Assembly (NCBI GenBank): GCA_902782445.1
Contig: CACZNC010000016.1
Coordinates: 13,295-77,294 of the forward strand
Direction: 5' to 3'
From: an uncultured Ruminococcus sp.
Lineage (GTDB): Bacteria; Bacillota; Clostridia; Oscillospirales; CAG-272
DNA: 64,000 nucleotides
In this document: positions 10,991 to 59,384 of the stretch, in pieces
Position numbering within the stretch: the stretch's first letter is position 1
Layout of the letters: each line of letters starts with the position of its first letter
Translations under genes and position numbers: made by a program
The notes under the pieces: model-generated
What the model saw: only the letters and a program-made list of their open reading frames with translations
The model's database searches: none
Told to the model about the DNA's origin: nothing

Positions 10991-11071
10991 GAAGTGGTTA
11001 GCGGTTAGTGGCTAGCAGAACGAAATGAGGAATTAAGAGTAATTCAGAATTCAGAATTATGAATGATGAAT

Positions 11072-11498: not shown

Positions 11499-12809
11499 TC
11501 AAGCCTCCGTCAGAAACTCCGCCTTTTCGTGATTTCTCACGCAGCCTTCGGTGATGACGACCTTCTTCACGTCCTTCCGGGAGGGGAGCTCGAACATGAT
11601 ATCCGTCATCGTCTCCTCGAGGATCGACCGCAGGCCCCGGGCTCCCGTGTTCCGCTCGATGGCGAGGGCCGCCACCGCCTTCATCGCCTCCGGGGTGAAG
11701 GTCAACTCCGCCCCGTCCATCCGGAAGAGCTCGGCGTACTGCTTCGCCAGGGAATTCCTCGGCTCGGTCAGGATCCGCACCAGCGCGTCCTCGTCCAGGT
11801 TTTCGAGGCCTACGATCACCGGCAGACGCCCCACCAGTTCCGGGATCAGGCCGTACTTCACGATATCGTGGGCGGTCACGTCCTTGAAGATCCCGTCCGC
11901 CCGCTTCTCTTCCTTCTTCCGGATGTCGGAGCGGAAGCCGATGGACGCCCGGCCCTTCCGCGCTTCGATGATCTGATCCAGATTGTCGAAGGCGCCGCCG
12001 CAGATAAAGAGGATGTTCTCCGTGTTGATCTGGATGAACTCCTGATTCGGGTGCTTCCGGCCTCCCTGGGGGGGTACGTTGGCCACCGTGCCCTCGAGGA
12101 TCTTCAACAGAGCCTGCTGCACGCCCTCGCCCGAGACGTCCCGGGTGATGGAACGGTTCTCGGACCGGCGGGAGATCTTGTCGATCTCGTCGATATAGAT
12201 GATCCCCCGCTCGGCCAGCTCGATGTCGTAGTCCGCCGCCTGGATCAGCCGCAGAAGGATGTTCTCCACGTCCTCGCCCACGTACCCGGCTTCCGTCAGG
12301 GTCGTGGCGTCCGCGATGGCGAAGGGGACTTCGAGGGTCTTCGCCAGCGTCTGGGCCAGGAAGGTCTTGCCGACGCCGGTGGGACCGATCAGAAGGACGT
12401 TGCTCTTCTGGATCTCCACGGCCTCCGGCGCGTTGTCGGCGTTTTCGGCGGGATCCGCTTTTCTGACCCGCTTCTTCCGCTTGTCGGCGTTCTCGCGGTT
12501 GACCAGCCGCTTGTAGTGGTTGTAGACGGCCACGGACAGCGCGATCTTCGCCTTGTCCTGCCCGATCACGTACTCGTCGAGGGTCGCTTTGAGCTCGGCG
12601 GGAGTGGGGAGGGGACGGCCGGAGAGCGGTTCGGCGGGCGCGGCGTTCAGGTGCTCGGAGATGATGTCGTTGCAGGCGTCGATGCACTTGTCGCAGATAT
12701 ACGCCCCCGTGGGGGAGGGGATCAGGAAATCGACCTGGGATTCGCTCCGGCCGCAGAAGGAGCAGCTGCGCTCGACCCGGAGCTTGCCCCCGTTTCGGTT
12801 CGTCGGCAT
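11499..12809 (-). CDS. clpX: ATP-dependent Clp protease ATP-binding subunit ClpX
   Basis: Zinc ribbon [28 protein letters not shown] and Walker [13 protein letters not shown] prefer ATG at 12809 (AAGGA Shine-Dalgarno) to the TTG at 12830. Confidence 0.95.
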
Positions 12810-13550: not shown

Positions 13551-14179
13551 AACGAGTTAGGAGTGGCTTGGTTAGTAGCTAGCGGCTAGTGGCTAGTAGC
13601 TAGTAGACCGCCCTCGTGAAATTAGGAATGAGGAATGAAATTCAGAATTCAGAATTATGAATTAAGAATTGTTTCACGTGAAACATTTGCCCGCCGAAAC
13701 TCCATGTTTCGCCCGGACGGTTTTCGATCGCGCGGTTCGGGCTGCATGTCGATCTGAATCTGAGTATGTGCGCGAGGACAAAGAAACAGTTTTTGCTTCC
13801 CGTCCGCGCGTCCTGTGCCCAATGCGCGCCTGAATCTCCGCCGGAGGCCAGCACGACTGCGTCGGTGCGTCAGACTTTGTCTGCGCACCACTCCAACTGC
13901 ACGAACAAAGACCGCGCGAGGACCGTGGGATGCAAGATCGAATTTCGAATACGGAACGAGCGGTAAGTTTATGCCATACGGCCAAGGACCCGCAGGGGGG
14001 ACTTCGGCCTGAGATGTTCCCCCTGCCGCCCGTCTGCGTGACTGCGTCGACGCGGCGTAGGGACATAAATCCGAAACGCGTAGCGTTTCATTCCTTATTT
14101 ACCTTCGATGAAGGTATGCTTTTCTCCGCCGACGGTCAAGAATGACCGTCGTTGCTGATTTCGTAAAGCGGAGCTTTGC
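13551..14179. repeat. R07 mosaic element: arm - parS - G(-)
   Basis: Between the tig stop and the clpP upstream region. Confidence 0.8.
13670..13685. promoter_or_regulatory. parS: parS-type 16-mer, perfect TGTTTCACGTGAAACA
   Basis: Exact read; R07. Confidence 0.65.
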
Positions 14180-23553: not shown

Positions 23554-23695
23554 GCAATAACCTCATGGGGAAGTTGTTAGAGGAGAGTGGCTAGTGGCTA
23601 GTAGAACGTGAAACGAGTGAGGAGTGGACGAGAATTAGGAATTAGGAATGAATTCAGAATTCAGAATGATGAATTAAGAATTAGGAATTGGCGGA

Positions 23696-25959: not shown

Positions 25960-26376
25960 GAGGGATGATCTGCTTCTTTCATGGGCGGAAATCTATGTCG
26001 GAAGGGAGTCCGCGGCGGGGCGGGGGGATGTGCGGGACGGGATGGGGAACTGTGCGGGACGGGCGTTTTTTGGATGGGAGCGCTTCGCCCGCTTCGCATG
26101 GATTCGGGAGACGCGCCGTCGTTCAGCCGGGAAATGGGGCGATCTTCGCGGGTCGGATCAGATTCAATCCGGACGAGCCGGAACATGGAGCCAACCCGGC
26201 TTGATCGCCGACGTGCGGCCGAACCCATGCGCGGGACAGGCCCGCGGCCTCGCGGCGGAGATTCAGGCGCGCATTGGAAGGGGGACAATGTCAGGGCTCT
26301 TCTCCCGATTGTTTCACGTGAAACAAGGAAAAACGGTTCTCCTGGCCACTAGCCGCTTCCAACTACCAACTCCTCA
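25960..26376. repeat. R13 mosaic element: F(-) - parS - arm
   Basis: Between mreC and mreB. The arm supplies the mreB TGA stop. Confidence 0.8.
26310..26325. promoter_or_regulatory. parS: parS-type 16-mer, perfect TGTTTCACGTGAAACA
   Basis: Exact read; R13. Confidence 0.65.
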
Positions 26377-35086: not shown

Positions 35087-35136
35087 TGGATAGGGGCTAG
35101 TGGTTAGTAGAAAATGAAATTCAGAATGAAGAATTA

Positions 35137-35322
35137 ATACTGATTTCACTCTAAACCATGTCAAAAGTTTTTGATCAACCTTTTTTCAAAAAGGTTGCGG
35201 GGTCAAGGGGCAGAGCCCTTGCCGACGTCCGCAGGAGTTCCTCTTTTGGTTCTTTTCTCCTCGATAAAGGAGAAAAGAACAGCGATATCTCTGGATGACA
35301 TCATTTAGAACGGAAATAGTAT
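35137..35322. repeat. MITE-like element with ATACTGATTTC / GGAAATAGTAT ends (copy 2), nested in R17
   Basis: Same family as 15533-15747. Contains a perfect 13-bp hairpin GTTCTTTTCTCCT-CGATAA-AGGAGAAAAGAAC. Confidence 0.6.
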
Positions 35323-40084: not shown

Positions 40085-40681
40085 GATCTTAGTTTAATCT
40101 CCTTCTGCTTAACGAGACGAAAGCCTCCGCCTTTCAAAACCAGCCATGACGGGCATTCCGGTGACTGCGTCGACCGATCCGTCGGCGGAGGAGGGTTTGT
40201 CCATCCCTTCACGAAGGGAAATAAGGTATGAAACGCTACGCGTTTCGGATTTAATGTCCCTGCGCGGGACGGGCGCCGGGAGGGACCATCTCAGGCCGAA
40301 GGCCCCTCCCGAGGGTCCCTTGGCCGTATGGCATAACTGTACAGCTCGTTCCGGAATCGAAATTCGACTGTATATCCCACGGTCCTCGCGCGGTCTTTGT
40401 TCGTACAGCTTAACCCGTGCACGGAACAAGTTCCGTGGGCTTCGCCGGCGTTTCAGGCGCGCATTGGGCACAGGGACGCGCGATTTTGAAGCTGAAACTG
40501 TTTCTCAGTCCTCGCGCACGGTTTTAGATTCAGAGGGACGTGCAGCCCGAACCGCGCGAACAAAAATCTGTTTGGGTGGAACATGGAGTTTTGGCGGCGA
40601 ATGTTTCACGTGAAACATCAGTCAATTCCTAACTCCTAACTCGTCCTCTGCTAGCCGCTAGCCGCTTCCAACTAGCAACTA
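40085..40681. repeat. R20 mosaic element: G(+) - parS - arm
   Basis: Between the gyrA start and the PfkB kinase stop. Confidence 0.8.
40602..40617. promoter_or_regulatory. parS: parS-type 16-mer, perfect TGTTTCACGTGAAACA
   Basis: Exact read; R20. Confidence 0.65.
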
Positions 40682-45020: not shown

Positions 45021-45257
45021 CTAACGACTAATTCTCCCTACGACCGCCGCGGTGGAGATATGCGTGAAGATCACCCCGTCGTCGGTGAGGATGAAGGTCC
45101 GGGGAAGGTCGTCCCCCGCGCTGGATGTGACGCCGCGCTTTTCCGCGGACTTGAGAAAATCCCGGTTCACGCGGGAATCCGTGTGGCCGTCCATGTCGAA
45201 GCATCCGAGGATCGAGGAAGCCCGGACAAGACGCCCCGCGCCGATGTGCAAGTACAT
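45021..45257 (-). CDS. remB: DUF370 / RemB (YaaB)-like small protein
   Basis: MYLHIGAGRLVRASSILGCFDMD... Located between dnaN and gyrB, as yaaB/remB is in Bacillus. The last codons (RISR*) are encoded by a repeat arm. Confidence 0.7.
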   Translation of the reverse strand: MYLHIGAGRLVRASSILGCFDMDGHTDSRVNRDFLKSAEKRGVTSSAGDDLPRTFILTDDGVIFTHISTAAVVGRISR

Positions 45258-45289: not shown

Positions 45290-45486
45290 GTAAGCGGCTA
45301 GTAGGCCAGTGGCTAGCAGTCAGTAGAACGGGGAAGTGAATCGTGATGATGAGGGCGGAATCGCTGTTTCACGTGAAACAATCCGCTTCCGAATCGAGCC
45401 CGGAGAACGGCGTTCCTCACTCCTCACTCCTAACTCCTCACTCGTCTCTACTAACCTCTAGCCTCTTCCAACTAGCAACTAAATCA
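45290..45486. repeat. R23 minimal element: arm - parS - arm
   Basis: Between the remB-like gene and dnaN. Confidence 0.75.
45365..45380. promoter_or_regulatory. parS: parS-type 16-mer, perfect TGTTTCACGTGAAACA
   Basis: Exact read; R23. Confidence 0.65.
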
Positions 45487-46764
45487 GTTATTCATTCTAA
45501 TGGGCATGACGAAGAACATAAACATGTCCTCGCGGTATTCTCTTTCCGACTGGGGGACGGGGGATTCAGGGCTATTGCCCAGGCGCTCGCCATAGACTTC
45601 GGGGTCGGGCTTCGCGTCGAGGAAGGTGGTCCCCTCCGCCGGTTCGATGACCGCGCCCATGCCGGGGGTGTTCAGCCGGATCCGCAGGCGGTCGCAGTCC
45701 GAGGGGCAGGCTTTCAGGGCTTCGAGGAGGTAGCGGCAGTTGAAGCCGATGGAGAGGTCCGCGCCGTCGATGGCAGCCGGGATCCGCTCGAACACCGACC
45801 CGCCGGCGGACACGGAGGACATGGAGACTTCCTTCCCCTTGAAATCCAGCTTCACGTAGGACCGCCCGTTCCCGCCGAGCTTGTCTTCGGTGACGATGGA
45901 CGCGCGTTCCACCGCCCCGAGCAGTTCCGCCCTTGAGACGAAGGCCTGAGTCATGTAGGTGGAGGGGAGGAGCCGTTCGTAGGCCATGTATTCCGCGTCG
46001 AGCATCCGGGTGAAGTAGTAGGTCCCGTCCACCCGGAAGACGATGTTCTTGCGGCCGATGATGAGTTCCGCGTCGTCCTCGGTGTCCCGGAGCATCTTCT
46101 GCAGTTCCCCGAGGAATCTGCCCGGGATGATCATTTCGCTCCGGTCGCCGTTTTCGGAGGAGGTGACTTCGCACTTCGCGGCGGAAAGGCGGTTCCCGTC
46201 GCATCCCACTGCCGTGAGCCAGCCCTCCCGGATGCGGAAGAGCCCGCCGTTGAAGGACACCCGCTGGTCGTTCTGGGCCACGGAGAAGACGGTCTCGGAG
46301 ATCAGGGCCTTCAGTTTGCGCTGGGGGACGAGGCATCTGCTCTCACCGACGAAGCGGGGCATGGAGGGGAAATCCTCGCCGGGAGCAGCGGTGATGGAGA
46401 ATTCCGAGAAGCCGCCCCGGACGGAGACCTTGCCCCGGTCGCCGATCTCGAGGGTGATCTCGCCGGAGGGGAGGGAGCGGACGATCTGCAGGATCTTGAC
46501 GGTGTTGATGACGTAGAGGCCCTCCTCCTCGATTTTGCAGGGGACGAGGGTGCGGAGCCCTTTTTCGAGGTCGAAGGCGGAGATGCGGCAGAGATCCCCG
46601 TCGATGCCTTCGCCGTCGTGTTCGCCGAGCTCGCCGAAGCGGGGATTCGGGGGACACTCGAAGAGGATGCCGTCGACGGACGCCATCGTGTTTTTGGTCT
46701 GCGCGACGGACACCGCGGGCGTGATCGCCGCCAGCAGGTCTTCGCGGTTGAAGGTGACTTTCAT
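45484..46764 (-). CDS. dnaN: DNA polymerase III beta sliding clamp
   Basis: 426 aa. MKVTFNREDLLAAITPAVSVAQTKNTM... ends ...FFVMPIRMNN. Downstream of dnaA-oriC. Confidence 0.93.
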   Translation of the reverse strand: MKVTFNREDLLAAITPAVSVAQTKNTMASVDGILFECPPNPRFGELGEHDGEGIDGDLCRISAFDLEKGLRTLVPCKIEEEGLYVINTVKILQIVRSLPSGEITLEIGDRGKVSVRGGFSEFSITAAPGEDFPSMPRFVGESRCLVPQRKLKALISETVFSVAQNDQRVSFNGGLFRIREGWLTAVGCDGNRLSAAKCEVTSSENGDRSEMIIPGRFLGELQKMLRDTEDDAELIIGRKNIVFRVDGTYYFTRMLDAEYMAYERLLPSTYMTQAFVSRAELLGAVERASIVTEDKLGGNGRSYVKLDFKGKEVSMSSVSAGGSVFERIPAAIDGADLSIGFNCRYLLEALKACPSDCDRLRIRLNTPGMGAVIEPAEGTTFLDAKPDPEVYGERLGNSPESPVPQSEREYREDMFMFFVMPIRMNN

Positions 46765-47151
46765 GTATGTTCTCCTTGGTTATGGTTCGTTGTCATGGGA
46801 GATTGAGAATGTATCTGAATTTCTCTCCCGGGGTTTTGGGGTGTGCGGGATTTGCGGTTTATATGATGGGAGCGCTTCGGTCCGGTTCGGGATGACGTGC
46901 GGTGCGGAATTATCGTTTTTTTATATGGGAGCGCTTCGCTGGGATGGAAGGGGTCGCGCGGACTTGAAGCCATAAAATGGAGCGATCCTCGCGGGATTCT
47001 TCAAATTCAAGCCGGACGAGCCTGATAGGGGAGGCAACCCCGCGCGGTCTCTGTTTTTGAAGCTGAAACATGCTCGGAGCAAGCTCCTCGGCCTTGCGGC
47101 GGTGATTCAGTCGCGCATGGAAGAGGGACAATGTATAGGCGGTCGGGATGA

Positions 47152-47167
47152 TGTTTCACGTGAAACA
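47152..47167. promoter_or_regulatory. parS: parS-type 16-mer, perfect TGTTTCACGTGAAACA
   Basis: Exact read; R24, dnaN side of oriC. Confidence 0.65.
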
Positions 47168-47381
47168 ATCGTGATTTCGTTCTGTTTTTCCTGAAACGAT
47201 TCTTTATTTTGGACGGCTGTCCCCCATCGTTCCGCTTCTCGTTGTCATTCTGAGGAGCCTGCGACGAAGAATCTCCGCACGTGAAGGATGGGTTGGCCTT
47301 GAAGCTGGGAGATTCTTCGCTGACAGCACAACTGCGTTGGAATGGGACGTGCAGCGTCCGATCTGACGGGAACGGCCCGCA

Positions 47382-47397
47382 TGTTTCACGTGAAACA
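47382..47397. promoter_or_regulatory. parS: parS-type 16-mer, perfect TGTTTCACGTGAAACA
   Basis: Exact read; R24. Confidence 0.65.
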
Positions 47398-48086
47398 TCC
47401 AGTCTTTCTCTTCACGTTGTCCCCTTTCCATGCGCGCCTGAATCTCTGCCGTAGGCCGCCGCATTGGCATATCGTTGTGCTATTCTTTTCGTGCATCCAG
47501 CCAATGCTGCAGACCGCGCGAGGTCAGCTTCATGTTCCGGCTCGTTCGGTCTGAATCGGAAACGACGCGCGGGGATTGCTCTGCGGCCCGGCTGAAAGTA
47601 CGCGCGTCCTGCGCCCAATCCTTTTCCGACTCATAAACCGAAAAATCCAAGTCGAATCGAAATCCCGCCCCGGACCTGACCCTCTGCTCCTCATTTTCTC
47701 CCTTCCGCGCGCAAGAGAATAGAAGAGAACAGATAAGATTAGATAAGAACAGCAGCAGGAGCAGTAGGCCCTGTGGGTCTTTGGGAAAACTCCGGGGGCT
47801 TTGCCGCCTGGCAGTTGACGGCAATTTCCGGTTCTCTCTGATAATTTTTCCTACATCAATTATAGCCGGACAGTCCGGCGTTCATGCGCGATTGTCTCCC
47901 GCCTGCCGGTTTTTTCCAGTTCCTGTGCCTTCCGGGGTGGGGAAATCCCTCCGGCTTTTTGGGAAAACCGCGGGGATCGGAGGCGTTTTCCTCTCCCGGA
48001 CCGACCCTTTCGGCGTCGAAATTCCGGTTTTCCGGGGCCCCGGGAGCGTCCGTTTTTCCACTCCCCGCCTGCGGAAACCTCCGGGC

Positions 48087-48095
48087 TGTGGAAAG
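48087..48095 (-). promoter_or_regulatory. DnaA box (TGTGGAAAG)
   Basis: Complement is CTTTCCACA, 7/9 to TTATCCACA. Confidence 0.5.
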
Positions 48096-48237
48096 AGGCG
48101 GTTCCCTTTTGCCGGGATTTTTCCGTGGACACCCTGCCCTTCCGGGTTTCTCCCCCCGGGACGTCGGACGCGCGGTCCTGCGGAGCTCCGATCAGTCCGG
48201 ATCCGGTTTTCGGATTTCCCGCCGGGTTTTCCGGGGG

Positions 48238-48246
48238 TTTTCCACA
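48238..48246 (+). promoter_or_regulatory. DnaA box (TTTTCCACA)
   Basis: 8/9 to TTATCCACA. Confidence 0.65.
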
Positions 48247-48353
48247 GGATTCGGGGCGGTTTTTCCGGGGGCGGGGAGGAAATCCGGGTTTTCGGCGTGC
48301 CGAGGGAGCCGTTTTCCGTTGGTTTTGCGTCAAGCGGGGGTGGAAAGCTCTGG

Positions 48354-48362
48354 TTTTCCACA
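48354..48362 (+). promoter_or_regulatory. DnaA box (TTTTCCACA)
   Basis: 8/9 match. Forms an inverted pair with the box at 48379, 16 bp away. Confidence 0.65.
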
Positions 48363-48378
48363 GAAGTTTTCCCCTGAT

Positions 48379-48387
48379 TGTGGAAAA
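48379..48387 (-). promoter_or_regulatory. DnaA box (TGTGGAAAA)
   Basis: Complement of TTTTCCACA, 8/9. Confidence 0.65.
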
Positions 48388-48442
48388 GTCCGAGGTGTTT
48401 TTTGCCCCGTTTTTCCGTCCGGATTTCGGCTTTGGGCACCGG

Positions 48443-48451
48443 TGTGGAAAA
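48443..48451 (-). promoter_or_regulatory. DnaA box (TGTGGAAAA)
   Basis: Complement of TTTTCCACA, 8/9. Confidence 0.65.
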
Positions 48452-48836
48452 ATATGGGGAAGTCAGCCGGTTTCCGCGGGGGAATGAGGTGACGGTTTTA
48501 TGTTATGGTTGTAATGGCTGATTCGGGATATTGTCTCGGTGCGGGATTATCGGGTTTTTGTATGGGATCGCTTCGCTGGAATGGAAGGGACGCGCGTTAC
48601 TGTATCGAAAACCTGTTTTTTCTCCTCGCGCGCTTTGACAGATTCTGACATGACGAGCCTGAGAATGGAGCCAACCTCGCGCGGTCTTCGCACGTGCAGC
48701 CGAAACATGCGCAGACAAGTCTGCGGCCTTGCGGCGGTGATTCAGGCGCGCATTCGGCGTTGGACGCGTGTTCGTGCGGCGGGATCTGTTTGTTCATCCT
48801 CGCGCGGATCAAGAAAGACAATGGTTTTCTTGGCTT

Positions 48837-48852
48837 TGTTTCACGTGAAACA
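48837..48852. promoter_or_regulatory. parS: parS-type 16-mer, perfect TGTTTCACGTGAAACA
   Basis: Exact read; R25, dnaA side of oriC. Confidence 0.65.
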
Positions 48853-49112
48853 ATCGCGGTTTCGGACGGCTGACCCTCATCGTTCCGCTTCTCGTTGTCA
48901 TTCTGAGGAGCCTGCGACGAAGAATCTCCGCACGTGTAGGATGGGTTGGCCTTGAAGTTGGGAGATTCTTCGCTGACAGCACAACTGCGTTGGTGCGCAC
49001 GACTGCGTCGGTGCGTCAGAATGACAAAGTGAGGACGAAACGGGACGTGCGGCGGCCTGTCTGACGGAGAAAAGCAGGATCGTTTCACAGAAACACCGGC
49101 AGAAAAAGGAAT

Positions 49113-49128
49113 TGTTTCACGTGAAACA
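49113..49128. promoter_or_regulatory. parS: parS-type 16-mer, perfect TGTTTCACGTGAAACA
   Basis: Exact read; R25. A decayed remnant CGTTTCACAGAAACA starts at 49081. Confidence 0.65.
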
Positions 49129-49431
49129 TCACCCCAACCGCCCAGACTCTGTCCCCTTTCCATGCGCGCCTGAATCACCGCCGTGAGGCCACGGGACTTG
49201 TCCCGTGCATGTTTCAGTTGCACGAACACAGACCGCGCGGGGAGAACGCCATGTTCCGCCCGTCATGTCTGAATCGGCGGAAGTGCGCGGGGACCGCATC
49301 CTGTTCCGGCTTCCCGTCCGCGCGTCCTGTGCCCACTCCTTTTCCCTCAAATAAAACCGCCATCTTTCCGCCGCGCTCAACCCCGATGCGGAACCACCTC
49401 CGCGCTCGGCCCATACAGAGAATACAAACCT

Positions 49432-51309
49432 TTATCCTCTCCGTATCTCCTTGGATATCTGCGCGACCCTCGCCTCAAACACGGCGTCTGACGCGAGCTC
49501 CGCCTCCACCTTCGCGATGTTCGAATGCACCGTGGAGTGGTCCCGGTAGAAAAATACGCCGATCTGGGGATAGGACGCGCCGGTGACGGTCCGCACCAGG
49601 TACATCGACACGTTCCGGGCGGTCTGGATGTTCTTCTTTCTGTCCTTGCCGAGAATGTCGTCCGGGGTGACGGAGTAGTGGGCCGCCACCTTCGCGATGA
49701 TCCGCGCCACCGTGTCCGTCAGCGGCTCCGTGGATCGGATGTACTCCGGGACGGTCTTCAAAACCATCTCCATCGTGACCGGGTCCCCGGAGATCATGTG
49801 CTTCATGGCGAGCTTCTTCACGACGCCCTCCAGCTGGCGAATGTTCTCCTGCAGGTTCGTGGCGAGGAAGTCGATGACGTCCGTCGGGACTTCCACGTGG
49901 TTCTGGCTGATCTTCTCTTTGAGGATCGCCATGCGGAGCTCGTAGTCCGGCGGCTGGATGTCGACAAGCAGTCCGGCTTCGAAGCGGCTGCGGATCCGGC
50001 TTTCGAGGGAGGTGAGCTCCTTCGGGGGCCTGTCCGAGGTGATGACGATCTGCTTCCTGTCCTCGTAGAGGGCGTCGAAGGTGTGGAAGAATTCGGTCTG
50101 GGTGCTCTCCTTCCCGGCGATGAACTGGATATCGTCGATGAGGAGCATGTCGGCCTTGCGGTATTTGTCGCGGAAGGCCTGGTTCCGGTCCCGCCGGATC
50201 GCCTCGATCATCTGGTTCATGAACTCCTCGCCCTTGACGTAGACGATCTTTAACCCGGGATCCCGCTTCATGGCCCGGTTGGCGATGGCGTACATCAGGT
50301 GGGTCTTGCCGAGGCCCGAGGGACCCCAGATAAAGAGGGGATTGATGGACATGCCCACGTTGTCGGCGACGCTGAGGGCCGCCGCGTGAGCCATCTGATT
50401 GGACCGGCCCACGATGAAGGTCTCGAAGGTGTAGTCGCGGCCGGGACCGTTGAGCAGCCGGTTCTGGAGATCGGGGGAGGAGGGGGGCACGGTCCGGGAG
50501 GGGGTGGGGATGCCGCCGCTGAACCCGGCGTTCTCCCGGCTTGCCGTCTGCCGTCCGTCGTCGGAGGGCGCGGGATTTTCTCTCCCTCCGTCAACTCCGG
50601 CGGGATTTTTGTAAACGGGTCTCGAGGCGGATCCGGGGACGGAGGGCCTGCTTGCGCCGGAAGAGGTCGGGGCTCCCGTGTGCCCCACGATGCGGTAGAC
50701 CGAGGGGGCGCCGATGTTCACGTAATCCGGCTCCCGTTCGGCGTCCTCGTCGGGCCAGCCCGTTCCGTTCCCCTCCGCGGTGGACCGTATGGCGTCGATA
50801 TCCCCCACGCCGGTCTGCCAGCCCTCGTCCCCGTCGTCCTCGCCGTCGTCGTCACGCTCGTCATACTGACGGGAAAGCGGGTCGGGGAGCTGTCCGGGAA
50901 TCCGCAGGCTGTCGCGGTTCCGGGGGAGGGTGAAGGGGACGGAGGGATCCGGGTCCGCCGCGGGATCCGCGTTCTGTCCGCCGGTACGGGGTTTTGGAAG
51001 CACGGCCCCGTCGGCGGTGAGGATGGTGCGGAGGGCGGGGTCGACCGTGACGGCGATCTCCGGCCGGTAGCCGAGGACTTCTTCGAGGGAGTCCGCGATG
51101 AGGTCGGAATAGCGCTCCGATACGATGCCGCACTTCATTTTGGTCTCGCAGGCGAACACGGCCCGTTCCGCGTCCAAAAGCTCCAGCCGCAGCCTGCCGA
51201 ACCAGAGCTGATAGGACTGCTTCGTCCCGGTATACCGTTCCCGCATGACCTCGTCGAGGGCCGCCCGGATCTCGTCCAGCCCGTCGGAGGCCTGTTTTTC
51301 TCTATTCAT
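49432..51309 (-). CDS. dnaA: chromosomal replication initiator protein DnaA (very long domain II)
   Basis: 625 aa. Domain I, a ~195-aa P/G/D-rich linker, AAA+ NPLFIWGPSGLGKTHLMYAI, and domain IV ...RKKNIQTARNVSMYLVR...SYPQIGVFFYRDHSTVH. Confidence 0.97.
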   Translation of the reverse strand: MNREKQASDGLDEIRAALDEVMRERYTGTKQSYQLWFGRLRLELLDAERAVFACETKMKCGIVSERYSDLIADSLEEVLGYRPEIAVTVDPALRTILTADGAVLPKPRTGGQNADPAADPDPSVPFTLPRNRDSLRIPGQLPDPLSRQYDERDDDGEDDGDEGWQTGVGDIDAIRSTAEGNGTGWPDEDAEREPDYVNIGAPSVYRIVGHTGAPTSSGASRPSVPGSASRPVYKNPAGVDGGRENPAPSDDGRQTASRENAGFSGGIPTPSRTVPPSSPDLQNRLLNGPGRDYTFETFIVGRSNQMAHAAALSVADNVGMSINPLFIWGPSGLGKTHLMYAIANRAMKRDPGLKIVYVKGEEFMNQMIEAIRRDRNQAFRDKYRKADMLLIDDIQFIAGKESTQTEFFHTFDALYEDRKQIVITSDRPPKELTSLESRIRSRFEAGLLVDIQPPDYELRMAILKEKISQNHVEVPTDVIDFLATNLQENIRQLEGVVKKLAMKHMISGDPVTMEMVLKTVPEYIRSTEPLTDTVARIIAKVAAHYSVTPDDILGKDRKKNIQTARNVSMYLVRTVTGASYPQIGVFFYRDHSTVHSNIAKVEAELASDAVFEARVAQISKEIRRG

Positions 51310-51355
51310 GAACCGTTCTCCGGTGGTTTTTTACATTATAATTATATACCGGTCA

Positions 51356-51384
51356 ATTATACCACAAAACGGTCTGAATGTCAA
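51356..51384 (-). promoter_or_regulatory. sigma-A-type promoter of dnaA
   Basis: Minus strand TTGACA (51379-51384), 17 nt, TGgTATAAT (-10 at 51356-51361). About 40 nt upstream of the dnaA ATG. Confidence 0.6.
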
Positions 51385-51469
51385 GAGGATAAAAGAATTT
51401 GAACGGGGAAGGAAGGAAGAAAATTAGATAAATTATTAGCGGGATATTAGTGAAATTCACATGATAGGA

Positions 51470-51904
51470 GTGGCTAGTGGTTAGTAGAACCGTCAGCATG
51501 AAATGAGGAATGAGGAGTGAAATTCAGAATTCAGAATTAAGAATTGTTTCACGTGAAACATCATGTCTTCCCCCGCACATTGTCCCCTTTCCATGCGCGC
51601 CTGAATCTCTGCCGGAGGCCGCAGGATTTATCCTGCGCATGTTTCGGCTGCACTTCGGCGATCAAGCCGGGTTGGCTCCATGTTCCGGCTCGTCAAATCC
51701 GCAATCGGTATAAGCGCGCGAAGAGCGTGAAGCGGTTTTTGATACAGAACCGCGCGTCCTATCCATTCCAGCGAAGCGCTCCCATATAAAAAACTATAAT
51801 CCCGCACCCCACCCCATCCCGCCGCGGACAACAAAAAAATCCCTCCCCACAGAAGATCCCCGTGAGGAGGAACGGTTATCGGCGATCAGCAGTCCCGGAA
51901 AGAT
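51470..51904. repeat. R26 mosaic element: arm - parS - F(+)
   Basis: Starts about 90 bp upstream of the dnaA promoter and ends at the SBP stop. Confidence 0.8.
51545..51560. promoter_or_regulatory. parS: parS-type 16-mer, perfect TGTTTCACGTGAAACA
   Basis: Exact read; R26. Confidence 0.65.
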
Positions 51905-58879: not shown

Positions 58880-59384
58880 TTAGTTGTTAGTTGGAAGTGG
58901 CTAGTGGCTAGTAGAGCGAAGAGGGAAGAGGGAATTCAGAATTCAGAATGAAGAATTGTTTCACGTGAAACATCCGCCGCCAAAACTCTATGTTTCGCCC
59001 GGACAGATTTTCGATCCCGCGGTTCAGCCTGCACGCGGATCTGAATCTGAATATGTGCGCGAGGACGGAGAAACAGTTTCAGCTTTCCATCCGCGCGTCC
59101 CATGTAATGCGCGCCTGAATCTCCGCCGTAAGGCCGCAGGACTTGTCCTGCGCATGTTTCGGCTGCACGAGCAGAGACCGCGCGAGGACGTGGGATGCAC
59201 AGTCGATTTTCGATTCAGGGACGAGCTGTAAGTTTATGCCATACGGCCAAGGGACCCGCACAGGGGGCCTTCGGCCTGAGATGGTCCCCCGTGCCGCCGT
59301 CCCGCGCAGGGACATAAATATACCGGTCGACGCAGTCACCGGGACCGTCGTTGCTGATTTCGAAAGGCGGAGTCTTTCGTTCGC
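58880..59384. repeat. R29 mosaic element: arm - parS - G(-)
   Basis: Between the hydrolase start and the oxidoreductase stop. Confidence 0.8.
58957..58972. promoter_or_regulatory. parS: parS-type 16-mer, perfect TGTTTCACGTGAAACA
   Basis: Exact read; R29. Confidence 0.65.

Follow-up and report, generated by a model that had tools for sequence, protein, structure and literature searches.

A predicted dnaA-dnaN replication origin flanked by parS-bearing mosaic repeats in an uncultured high-GC rumen Clostridia bacterium

The spacer between dnaA and dnaN in an uncultured Ruminococcus sp. (GenBank assembly GCA_902782445.1, contig CACZNC010000016.1, positions 13,295 to 77,294; this whole stretch of 64,000 nucleotides is referred to here as the window) contains an 881-bp core of unique DNA, at 47641–48521 of the window, that we predict to be the chromosomal replication origin, oriC, of the Firmicute dnaA-dnaN type. 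Two large composite repeats, R24 and R25, bracket this core, and each carries two perfect copies of parS, the site on which the partition protein ParB is loaded. We consider the bracketing to be an incidental by-product of the repeat family to which R24 and R25 belong, and we assign this combined reading, which rests on sequence analysis, a probability of about 0.8; that the core is the chromosomal origin is very likely. The host is a high-GC rumen bacterium of the Oscillospiraceae.

The spacer occupies 46765–49431 (2667 bp). It is bounded by dnaN (45484–46764, minus strand; 426 aa, with the N-terminal, central and C-terminal DNA_pol3_beta domains of Pfam) and dnaA (49432–51309, minus strand; 625 aa, Bac_DnaA and Bac_DnaA_C), and these Pfam-defined ends give the same length as that reported in a first-pass annotation of this DNA. 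Next to dnaN lies a unique leader with the ribosome-binding site AAGGAGAA (46765–46836, minus strand, outside the repeat homology), followed by R24 (46837–47640), a mosaic and imperfectly palindromic repeat that separates the unwinding element from dnaN. The core comes next. R25 (48522–49355), a mosaic repeat of the R24 type in direct orientation, fills the region between the box cluster and the dnaA stop codon. The annotation had placed the unique DNA at about 47700–48500; such a segment exists, but its limits are wider and about 75 bp beside each gene are also unique. Its premise that this spacer is usually a few hundred base pairs long does not apply to this clade, in which spacers measure 0.9–1.9 kb even without composites.

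DnaA-box-like sequences are concentrated in the core. The window contains four perfect matches to TTWTCCACA, all of them within the core (0.40 expected; none of 100 shuffles reaches four). The sequence TTTTCCACA is found on the plus strand at 48238–48246 and 48354–48362 and on the minus strand at 48379–48387 and 48443–48451, the last being closest to dnaA. The boxes at 48354 and 48379 are the left and right members of a convergent pair that is kept in relatives. Two further boxes have one mismatch, TTTTCCACT at 48054–48062 (plus strand) and CTTTCCACA at 48087–48095 (minus strand). The four perfect boxes, the inverted pair and the weaker box at 48087 had already been recognized in the first-pass annotation, whereas the box at 48054 is an addition. 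The core also holds an array of degenerate TTTTCC-type sites (47846–48420, mostly plus strand), probably of low affinity, which forms blocks conserved in relatives and in which several sites stand 11–13 bp from a strong box. The many TTTTCC reiterations noted earlier amount to 17 occurrences of TTTTCC or GGAAAA in 47700–48500, against 1.3 expected. Counting sites with at most two mismatches, the density is 19.3 per kb in the core, seven times that of the whole window (2.7), and 1.1 in R24, 2.2 in R25 and 3.4 in the gap upstream of dnaA. This gap (51310–51904, 595 bp) contains two such sites, a background density, and no box cluster, as the annotation had stated; the arrangement thus differs from the bipartite Firmicute origin, in which oriC1 and oriC2 flank dnaA. 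No second box cluster was found anywhere in the window.

The basal unwinding system (BUS), defined for Bacillus subtilis and found across bacteria, is recognized by a DnaA box with at most two mismatches, an optional second box with at most four, a spacer of 0–16 bp (mode 13) and at least three NAN trios (Pelliciari 2021, PMC8287927). On the dnaN side of the core, the segment 47744–47789 conforms to all of these rules, with a 13-bp spacer and eight trios, the first being GAT. Read along the minus strand, the module consists of the upstream box TTTTCCCAA (47781–47789; two mismatches, 13 bp from the first trio), the trio-proximal box AGACCCACA (47772–47780; four mismatches, assigned by alignment to relatives), a GC cluster (47768–47771, GGGC on this strand), the DnaA-trios and then a T/C-rich AT tract. 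The trios occupy 47744–47767 and read 3'-GAT GAC GAG GAC GAC GAC AAG AAT-5' on the plus strand, corresponding to 5'-CTA CTG CTC CTG CTG CTG TTC TTA-3' on the minus strand. Boxes precede this run of trios but none of the four other runs of at least eight NTN triplets in the window. The adjoining AT-rich tract, conserved in relatives, is the predicted DNA-unwinding element, with approximate limits of 47700 and 47743. The 50-mer at 47717–47766 has a stacking energy of -61.9 kcal/mol, 2.7 standard deviations above the window mean of -76.6 (standard deviation 5.4), and ties with 47815–47864 and with 47160–47209, inside R24, as the least stable in the spacer. The AT-rich stretches that had been pointed out on the dnaN side are therefore real, and the earlier proposal that the core is oriC gains from the position of the AT-rich DNA at 47700–47766, directly beside a box pair, GC cluster and trio module that is conserved across relatives.

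Conservation was examined in rumen metagenome-assembled genomes labelled Oscillospiraceae, Ruminococcus or Clostridia, drawn from a scan of one genome per species, whose DnaA proteins are 62–84% identical to the one encoded here; six of them have both dnaA and dnaN on the contig and were used for the spacer comparison. All six show the order dnaA, a spacer of 0.87–1.9 kb, and dnaN, with a cluster of TTTTCCACA boxes in the spacer and no perfect box upstream of dnaA. The core aligns with the entire spacer of the relatives. In the alignment with four GC-rich relatives, the conserved blocks include the two convergent boxes enclosing a GGAAAA site, a unit of the form TGTGGAAAAC-N3-CGGAAAAC, and the unwinding module. 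The BUS module is found at the same relative positions in five relatives (L001, L003, L005, L007 and L008). In the AT-richer L007, it reads TTTTCCACA, GTTTCCACA, GCCT, CTG CTA CTG CTG CTA CTA and then AT-rich DNA, so that TTTTCCACA is the counterpart of the box at 47781–47789 and GTTTCCACA that of the box at 47772–47780. Because the homologous module of L007 is canonical, we interpret the degenerate 9-mers at 47772–47789 as counterparts of a tandem DnaA-box pair.

Variation among close strains follows the same pattern. In a variant from a Joint Genome Institute (JGI) metagenome, the core is about 97% identical, compared with about 94% for dnaN, dnaA and the repeats, and no base of a box, trio or GC cluster is altered. 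Among Logan contigs from four gut metagenomes, none of the listed variants hits a perfect box and no box or trio is spoiled; one natural variant, 47777 G>A, improves the trio-proximal box to AGATCCACA.

R24 and R25 are direct repeats, as the first-pass annotation had reported, with 77% identity overall and 96% over a 134-nt centre (47207–47340 in R24, 48860–48993 in R25). A 33-mer of this centre module, GTCATTCTGAGGAGCCTGCGACGAAGAATCTCC, has 12 copies in the window. Each composite folds as a giant imperfect hairpin in which its two parS sites face each other (z = -7.6 for R24 and -14.3 for R25). A blastn search with R24 and R25 gave no match in the eight closest relative loci, and L001, L007 and L008, which are compact relatives, lack R24 at the orthologous position; the repeats are thus lineage-specific. 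In these three, the trios end 78–108 bp before the dnaN start codon, compared with 979 bp here, and the whole spacers, at 0.87–1.2 kb, are about the size of the core. The excess length of the present spacer can therefore be attributed to the two inserted composites. The many intergenic copies, the palindromic structure and the empty orthologous sites are those of repeats of the miniature inverted-repeat transposable element (MITE) or bacterial interspersed mosaic element (BIME) type. The best reading is that R24 and R25 are lineage-specific insertions of parS-bearing mosaic repeats at two permissive edges of an intact origin.

Other repeats occupy the gap between unwinding element and dnaN in two relatives. 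L003 (3540–4300) has a fourfold tandem repeat of about 100 bp and a module shared with the window at 1737–1954, 13891–14032, 40224–40408 and other places. L005 (6080–6745) has hairpins of GGTTTCACGAGGTGAAACC, in which parS half-sites are split by 3 bp, together with a TTCTGAATTCTTAATTC module. Among the repeats of these gaps is an AT-rich TTCTGAATTC module that is also found in the window. Repeats other than R24 thus occupy this gap in L003 and L005, which makes it an insertion hot spot in the clade.

Scored against the 16-bp palindrome TGTTNCACGTGAAACA, the window contains 49 parS sites, 36 perfect and 13 with one mismatch, where 0.01 would be expected for up to two mismatches. To our knowledge, this is far denser than any chromosomal parS cluster. 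None of the 49 lies inside a called gene. Intergenic DNA makes up 33.5% of the window, and parS is present in 29 of the 31 intergenic gaps longer than 150 bp, with one to four sites per gap, typically in pairs 220–280 bp apart around the conserved centre module. The sites flanking the core are at 47152–47167 and 47382–47397 in R24, the latter 347 bp from the DnaA-trios, and at 48837–48852 and 49113–49128 in R25, the former 386 bp from the outermost strong box. All four are perfect copies of TGTTTCACGTGAAACA, as had been claimed, but they are not all within about 1 kb of the unwinding region, since the pair on the dnaA side is 1.07–1.35 kb away. The density of parS in the spacer outside the core (four in 1.8 kb) equals the general intergenic density of 2.3 per kb.

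The family extends well beyond the window. When JGI metagenome contigs were searched for the 33-nt centre module, 60 loci were identified (L057–L116, mostly Ga0310695), of which 51, covering 375 kb, lie outside the window and carry 156 further parS sites, 150 of them outside called genes. The counts outside the window are lower bounds (at least 156 sites and at least 51 loci). Across the 49 window sites, information content is 1.90 bits per position within the 16-mer and 0.14 and 0.52 in the two 25-bp flanks. The 16-mer is nearly invariant while its flanks are several unrelated modules, which argues for selection on parS itself. An invariant joint between unrelated modules suggests either such selection or modules that insert at, or carry, parS. 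As for their setting, parS-bearing composites also separate usual operon neighbours, such as mreB and mreC (25960–26373, a 414-bp gap with parS at 26310) and tig and clpP (a 718-bp gap). The least stable DNA of the window belongs to an AT-rich repeat module (AATTCAGAATTCAGAAT...) found immediately next to many parS sites, for example at 23633–23682, 13620–13669, 11022–11071 and 35105–35154. In four metagenomes, repeat modules have 20–80 times the k-mer depth of unique DNA.

No ParB is encoded among the window genes. Two of the JGI contigs, L085 (334–4121) and L114, carry a locus of rsmG, parA (261 aa) and parB (300 aa; Pfam ParB_N and HTH_ParB). They have the same 33-mer module and the same GC content, with three to four parS sites and composites between and around rsmG, parA and parB. 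The parS sites are probably real ParB loading sites. A likely ancestral site can be recognized in L001, which has a single parS (12776–12791) just after pfkB, a PfkB-family kinase gene, in a 220-bp pfkB-gyrA gap. It is orthologous to the site at 40602–40617 of the window, where the same gap has been enlarged by repeat modules to 594 bp. The site at 40602–40617 is probably an ancestral one around which modules accreted, and the ancestor probably had a few parS sites, at a distance of some kilobases from oriC.

From these sequence features we infer DnaA binding, unwinding and ParB loading at the spacer. DnaA would occupy the six strong TTTTCCACA-type boxes between 48054 and 48451, and DnaA-ATP would then fill the many degenerate TTTTCC sites. 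The tandem boxes at 47772–47789 would direct a DnaA filament onto the eight plus-strand trios at 47744–47767, and the adjacent AT-rich tract at about 47700–47743 would open on the dnaN side. The composites are best read as later insertions of mosaic palindromic intergenic repeats, whose modules are joined by perfect parS. They would have landed in the only two parts of the spacer that can take an insertion without damage to the origin, one separating the dnaA stop codon from the first box and the other separating the unwinding element from the ribosome-binding site of dnaN. ParB clamps would be loaded within 0.35–0.4 kb of the origin on both sides, as part of a dense parS field, and would slide from the four flanking sites toward the core.

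Several observations weigh against an origin at this place or against parts of this account. Gene orientation does not change at 48 kb: dnaA and the five genes preceding it, as far as 63.7 kb, are all on the minus strand and would therefore be transcribed head-on to a rightward fork. In relatives, as here, the genes upstream of dnaA are co-oriented with it over at least 10–14 kb. Within the window, cumulative GC skew reaches its minimum near 18 kb; it is tied to the coding strand (C exceeds G on coding strands), and whole-window GC skew was for this reason rejected as an origin test. In search of a strand switch, we looked up the last gene of the window for an extension to the right, which gave a 2.7-kb contig only. 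The origin call thus has no independent confirmation from GC skew or gene orientation in the window. The tandem boxes beside the trios are degenerate here, with two and four mismatches. The unwinding tract is only moderately unstable, and less so than several AT-rich repeat modules in other parts of the window. On the segregation side, the source of L085 and L114 is the same or a closely related organism, as judged from their sequence, and the parA-parB locus is not on the window's own contig.

The lack of a strand switch or a clear skew minimum at 48 kb, the co-oriented upstream genes and the missing rnpA-rpmH context are what one would expect if the box cluster were regulatory, serving dnaA/dnaN autoregulation or DnaA titration, with the active origin outside the window. 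We find this very unlikely: a complete and conserved module of box pair, GC cluster, DnaA-trios and AT-rich DNA at the 13-bp spacing is the signature of an unwinding site, not of titration, and the 64-kb window has no other box cluster. In addition, the coding-strand GC skew at third codon positions (GC3) of minus-strand genes is -0.138 to the left of 47 kb (n=18) and -0.234 beyond 49 kb on the right (n=6); for the plus-strand genes of the left part it is -0.277 (n=7). The left-right difference has the direction expected for a switch between leading and lagging strand near 48 kb, although in this short window it is not significant (p = 0.34). Misassembly is another concern, since the spacer holds two repeats of about 0.8 kb from a family with dozens of copies, and short-read contigs break inside the repeats or the core (L055 ends at 47339, L061 and L067 at about 48370). 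We regard a mis-joined spacer as practically negligible. Three assemblies from at least two samples agree on the dnaA-R25-core-R24 arrangement with 0–5 mismatches; besides the present one they comprise L054 and L055, the latter from a different sample and without mismatches over 12 kb. In the JGI variant of about 94% identity (L061 and L067), both repeats occupy these same sites. The arrangement is also seen in Logan contigs of four gut metagenomes, one of which, 985 nt long, spans the core from repeat edge to repeat edge. Joints of about 1.6–1.75 kb in the Logan contigs, which seem to skip from R24 to R25, were considered as core deletions and dismissed; their anchors are 19–24 nt and other mosaic copies explain them best. 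Indels of 25 bp, at 47339/47340 within R24, and of 84 bp, at 59319/59320, distinguish the assemblies. We also note that the 134-nt direct repeats at 47207–47340 and 48860–48993 flank the core 1653 bp apart, and recombination between them would delete the origin.

A different question is whether the bracketing has a function. The first-pass annotation had raised coupling between ParB loading and initiation as a plausible idea. On this reading, ParB-CTP clamps loaded at the four flanking parS sites would slide from either side as far as oriC or into it, with effects that could include modulation of initiation, directly or through ParA/Soj acting on DnaA, topological insulation from dnaA and dnaN transcription, or reloading of ParB and SMC on the few hundred base pairs that are replicated first. 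The distances of 347 bp to the trios and 386 bp to the outermost box, one on each side, are compatible with such a role, as are the strong constraint on parS, the ParA and ParB encoded on the composite-bearing JGI contigs, and the retention of both composites at the same places in the variant diverged by about 6%. Precedents exist as well. In Vibrio cholerae, ParB2 was shown experimentally to spread from parS2-B into oriII, so proximity of parS to an origin can matter (PMC3688505), and interactions of Soj and of ParB with DnaA have been reviewed (PMC7022226). In B. subtilis, however, ParA control of DnaA is independent of the position and number of parS sites, which disfavours a need for proximity (PMC7614844). 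Close relatives use the same origin without flanking parS. Since parS composites fill 29 of the 31 gaps and at least 51 further loci, two composites in the largest gap are what would be expected, and no origin-specific selection is needed. Coupling remains speculative and, in our judgement, unlikely. Saturation of intergenic DNA by the repeat family accounts best for the bracketing, which would then be a side effect and not a dedicated device linking ParB and DnaA.

A broader possibility, which we also hold to be improbable on present sequence evidence, is that the composites are more than passengers and that the origin domain as a whole acts as a giant distributed centromere of hundreds of parS sites with oriC at its heart and with ParB loading 350–390 bp from the unwinding element and the box cluster. 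If so, newly made origin DNA would receive ParB-CTP clamps almost at once, which would in turn bring in ParA and SMC, and the DnaA-oriC complex would be the sole ParB-free island, protected as a roadblock. We know of no description of such physical coupling between initiation and segregation for any DnaA-dependent chromosome.

The dnaA-dnaN origin of B. subtilis with its BUS was reportedly described by Richardson in 2016 and 2019. The predicted origin resembles incC of B. subtilis and oriC2 of Clostridioides difficile in its dnaA-dnaN location, the 13-bp spacing from box to first trio, the tandem box pair, the 4-bp GC cluster, trios of the 5'-CTA type and the AT-rich tract facing dnaN. The trios were compared directly with the C. 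difficile sequence, in which the oriC2 element is 5'-CACCTACTACTATTACTACTATGA-3' (Oliveira Paiva 2020, PMC7561715); the one here, CACAGGGCCTACTGCTCCTGCTGCTG, has the same design. In contrast to both systems, the predicted origin is monopartite; dnaA has neither a box cluster on its upstream side nor rnpA-rpmH as neighbours. Its box, TTTTCCACA, is clade-specific, its core is GC-rich with about 17 degenerate TTTTCC-type sites, its trio-proximal boxes are degenerate, and a repeat of about 0.8 kb separates the unwinding element from dnaN. It is a further BUS-type dnaA-dnaN origin, monopartite and with a TTTTCCACA consensus, ordinary in kind but very clear.

Chromosomal parS sites number about ten in B. 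subtilis and about two dozen in Streptomyces coelicolor and Myxococcus xanthus. In Pseudomonas aeruginosa, the ParB complex on parS1–4 overlaps oriC (PMC10419367). The present field shares with these origin-proximal clusters the 16-bp palindrome TGTTTCACGTGAAACA, the concentration of sites near oriC, a candidate parAB operon in the lineage and an expected ParB domain over the origin. It is far denser: the 64-kb window has 49 sites, and at least 156 more lie outside it. All sites of the window are intergenic and form the invariant joints of mosaic repeats, and sites paired in giant hairpins come within 0.35–0.4 kb of the origin elements on both sides. Chromosome II of V. cholerae offers another parallel, in that a centromere site lies beside the origin and a spreading partition protein can reach initiator-binding DNA (PMC3688505). 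The initiator system there is RctB with 39-mers, not DnaA, whereas here there is proximity alone, of a kind common to nearly all intergenic gaps. Like the BIME and repetitive extragenic palindromic (REP) sequences of Escherichia coli, the Correia elements of Neisseria and enterobacterial repetitive intergenic consensus (ERIC) sequences, the composites consist of short modules in variable order and orientation, and are strictly intergenic, palindromic and present in many copies; absence from orthologous sites in relatives is a further likeness to BIME and MITE-like repeats. They differ in that their modules are joined by a centromere-like sequence and their units are up to 0.8 kb long. The mosaic make-up blurs their boundaries, and the composites could not be linked to a transposase, to target-site duplications or to a known family, though no systematic search for transposases or duplications was made. 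The embedding of an origin between two parS-bearing giant hairpins is a novel twist on the known theme of origin-proximal parS. What is truly unusual is the amplification of a mosaic repeat family joined by parS, not the bracketing.

These observations concern a poorly studied group, the high-GC rumen Clostridia, and place a predicted origin inside a parS field that is apparently denser than any other known on a chromosome and that is borne by mosaic repeats of one family. The repeat insertions form a natural insertion footprint that delimits about 0.88 kb of insertion-intolerant DNA, which evolves more slowly than the neighbouring genes. The core is thus a ready-made candidate for a minimal origin of an uncultured organism. 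If the sites load ParB, the lineage would be a natural experiment on the number of parS sites per chromosome, on their closeness to oriC and on mutual exclusion between ParB clamps and DnaA.

The remaining features concern the gene neighbourhood and transcription. Leftward of dnaN, on the same strand, are gyrB, pfkB and gyrA; recF and yaaA are absent between dnaN and gyrB. A 78-aa open reading frame in the dnaN-gyrB gap (45021–45257, minus strand) has a weak RemA-like/DUF370 match that is below the cut-off (E = 2e-4), and is probably yaaB/remB of the origin cluster conserved in Firmicutes. The neighbours upstream of dnaA are not rpmH and rnpA but genes for a 498-aa protein without known function and for SpoIIE. 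DnaA is unusually long at 625 aa, with its ATPase domain starting at residue ~291 and a long N-terminal or linker region before it, and in DnaN the match to the N-terminal domain begins only at residue 60. Open reading frames called in the spacer (188 aa, and 202 aa at 47884–48492, plus strand) and an overlapping one of 198 aa (47781–48377, plus strand) were treated as spurious; the 202-aa and 198-aa frames have no Pfam match and overlap the box array. An Rfam scan of the whole window found two tRNAs only, none in the spacer or the composites. Metatranscriptome contigs give low-depth coverage of dnaA, dnaN, the centres of the composites and two patches within the core, too sparse to interpret and possibly due to DNA carry-over. 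A promoter and terminator consensus scan of 46600–49600 found no promoter-like site, and terminator-like sites were fewer than in shuffles. A perfect TATAAT is found at 47859–47864 (minus strand), about 70 bp upstream of the tandem boxes, with TATTAT or TATACT in L001 and L008. No convincing -35 element was seen with it; the hexamer may be an ancestral dnaN promoter that transcribes through the unwinding element.

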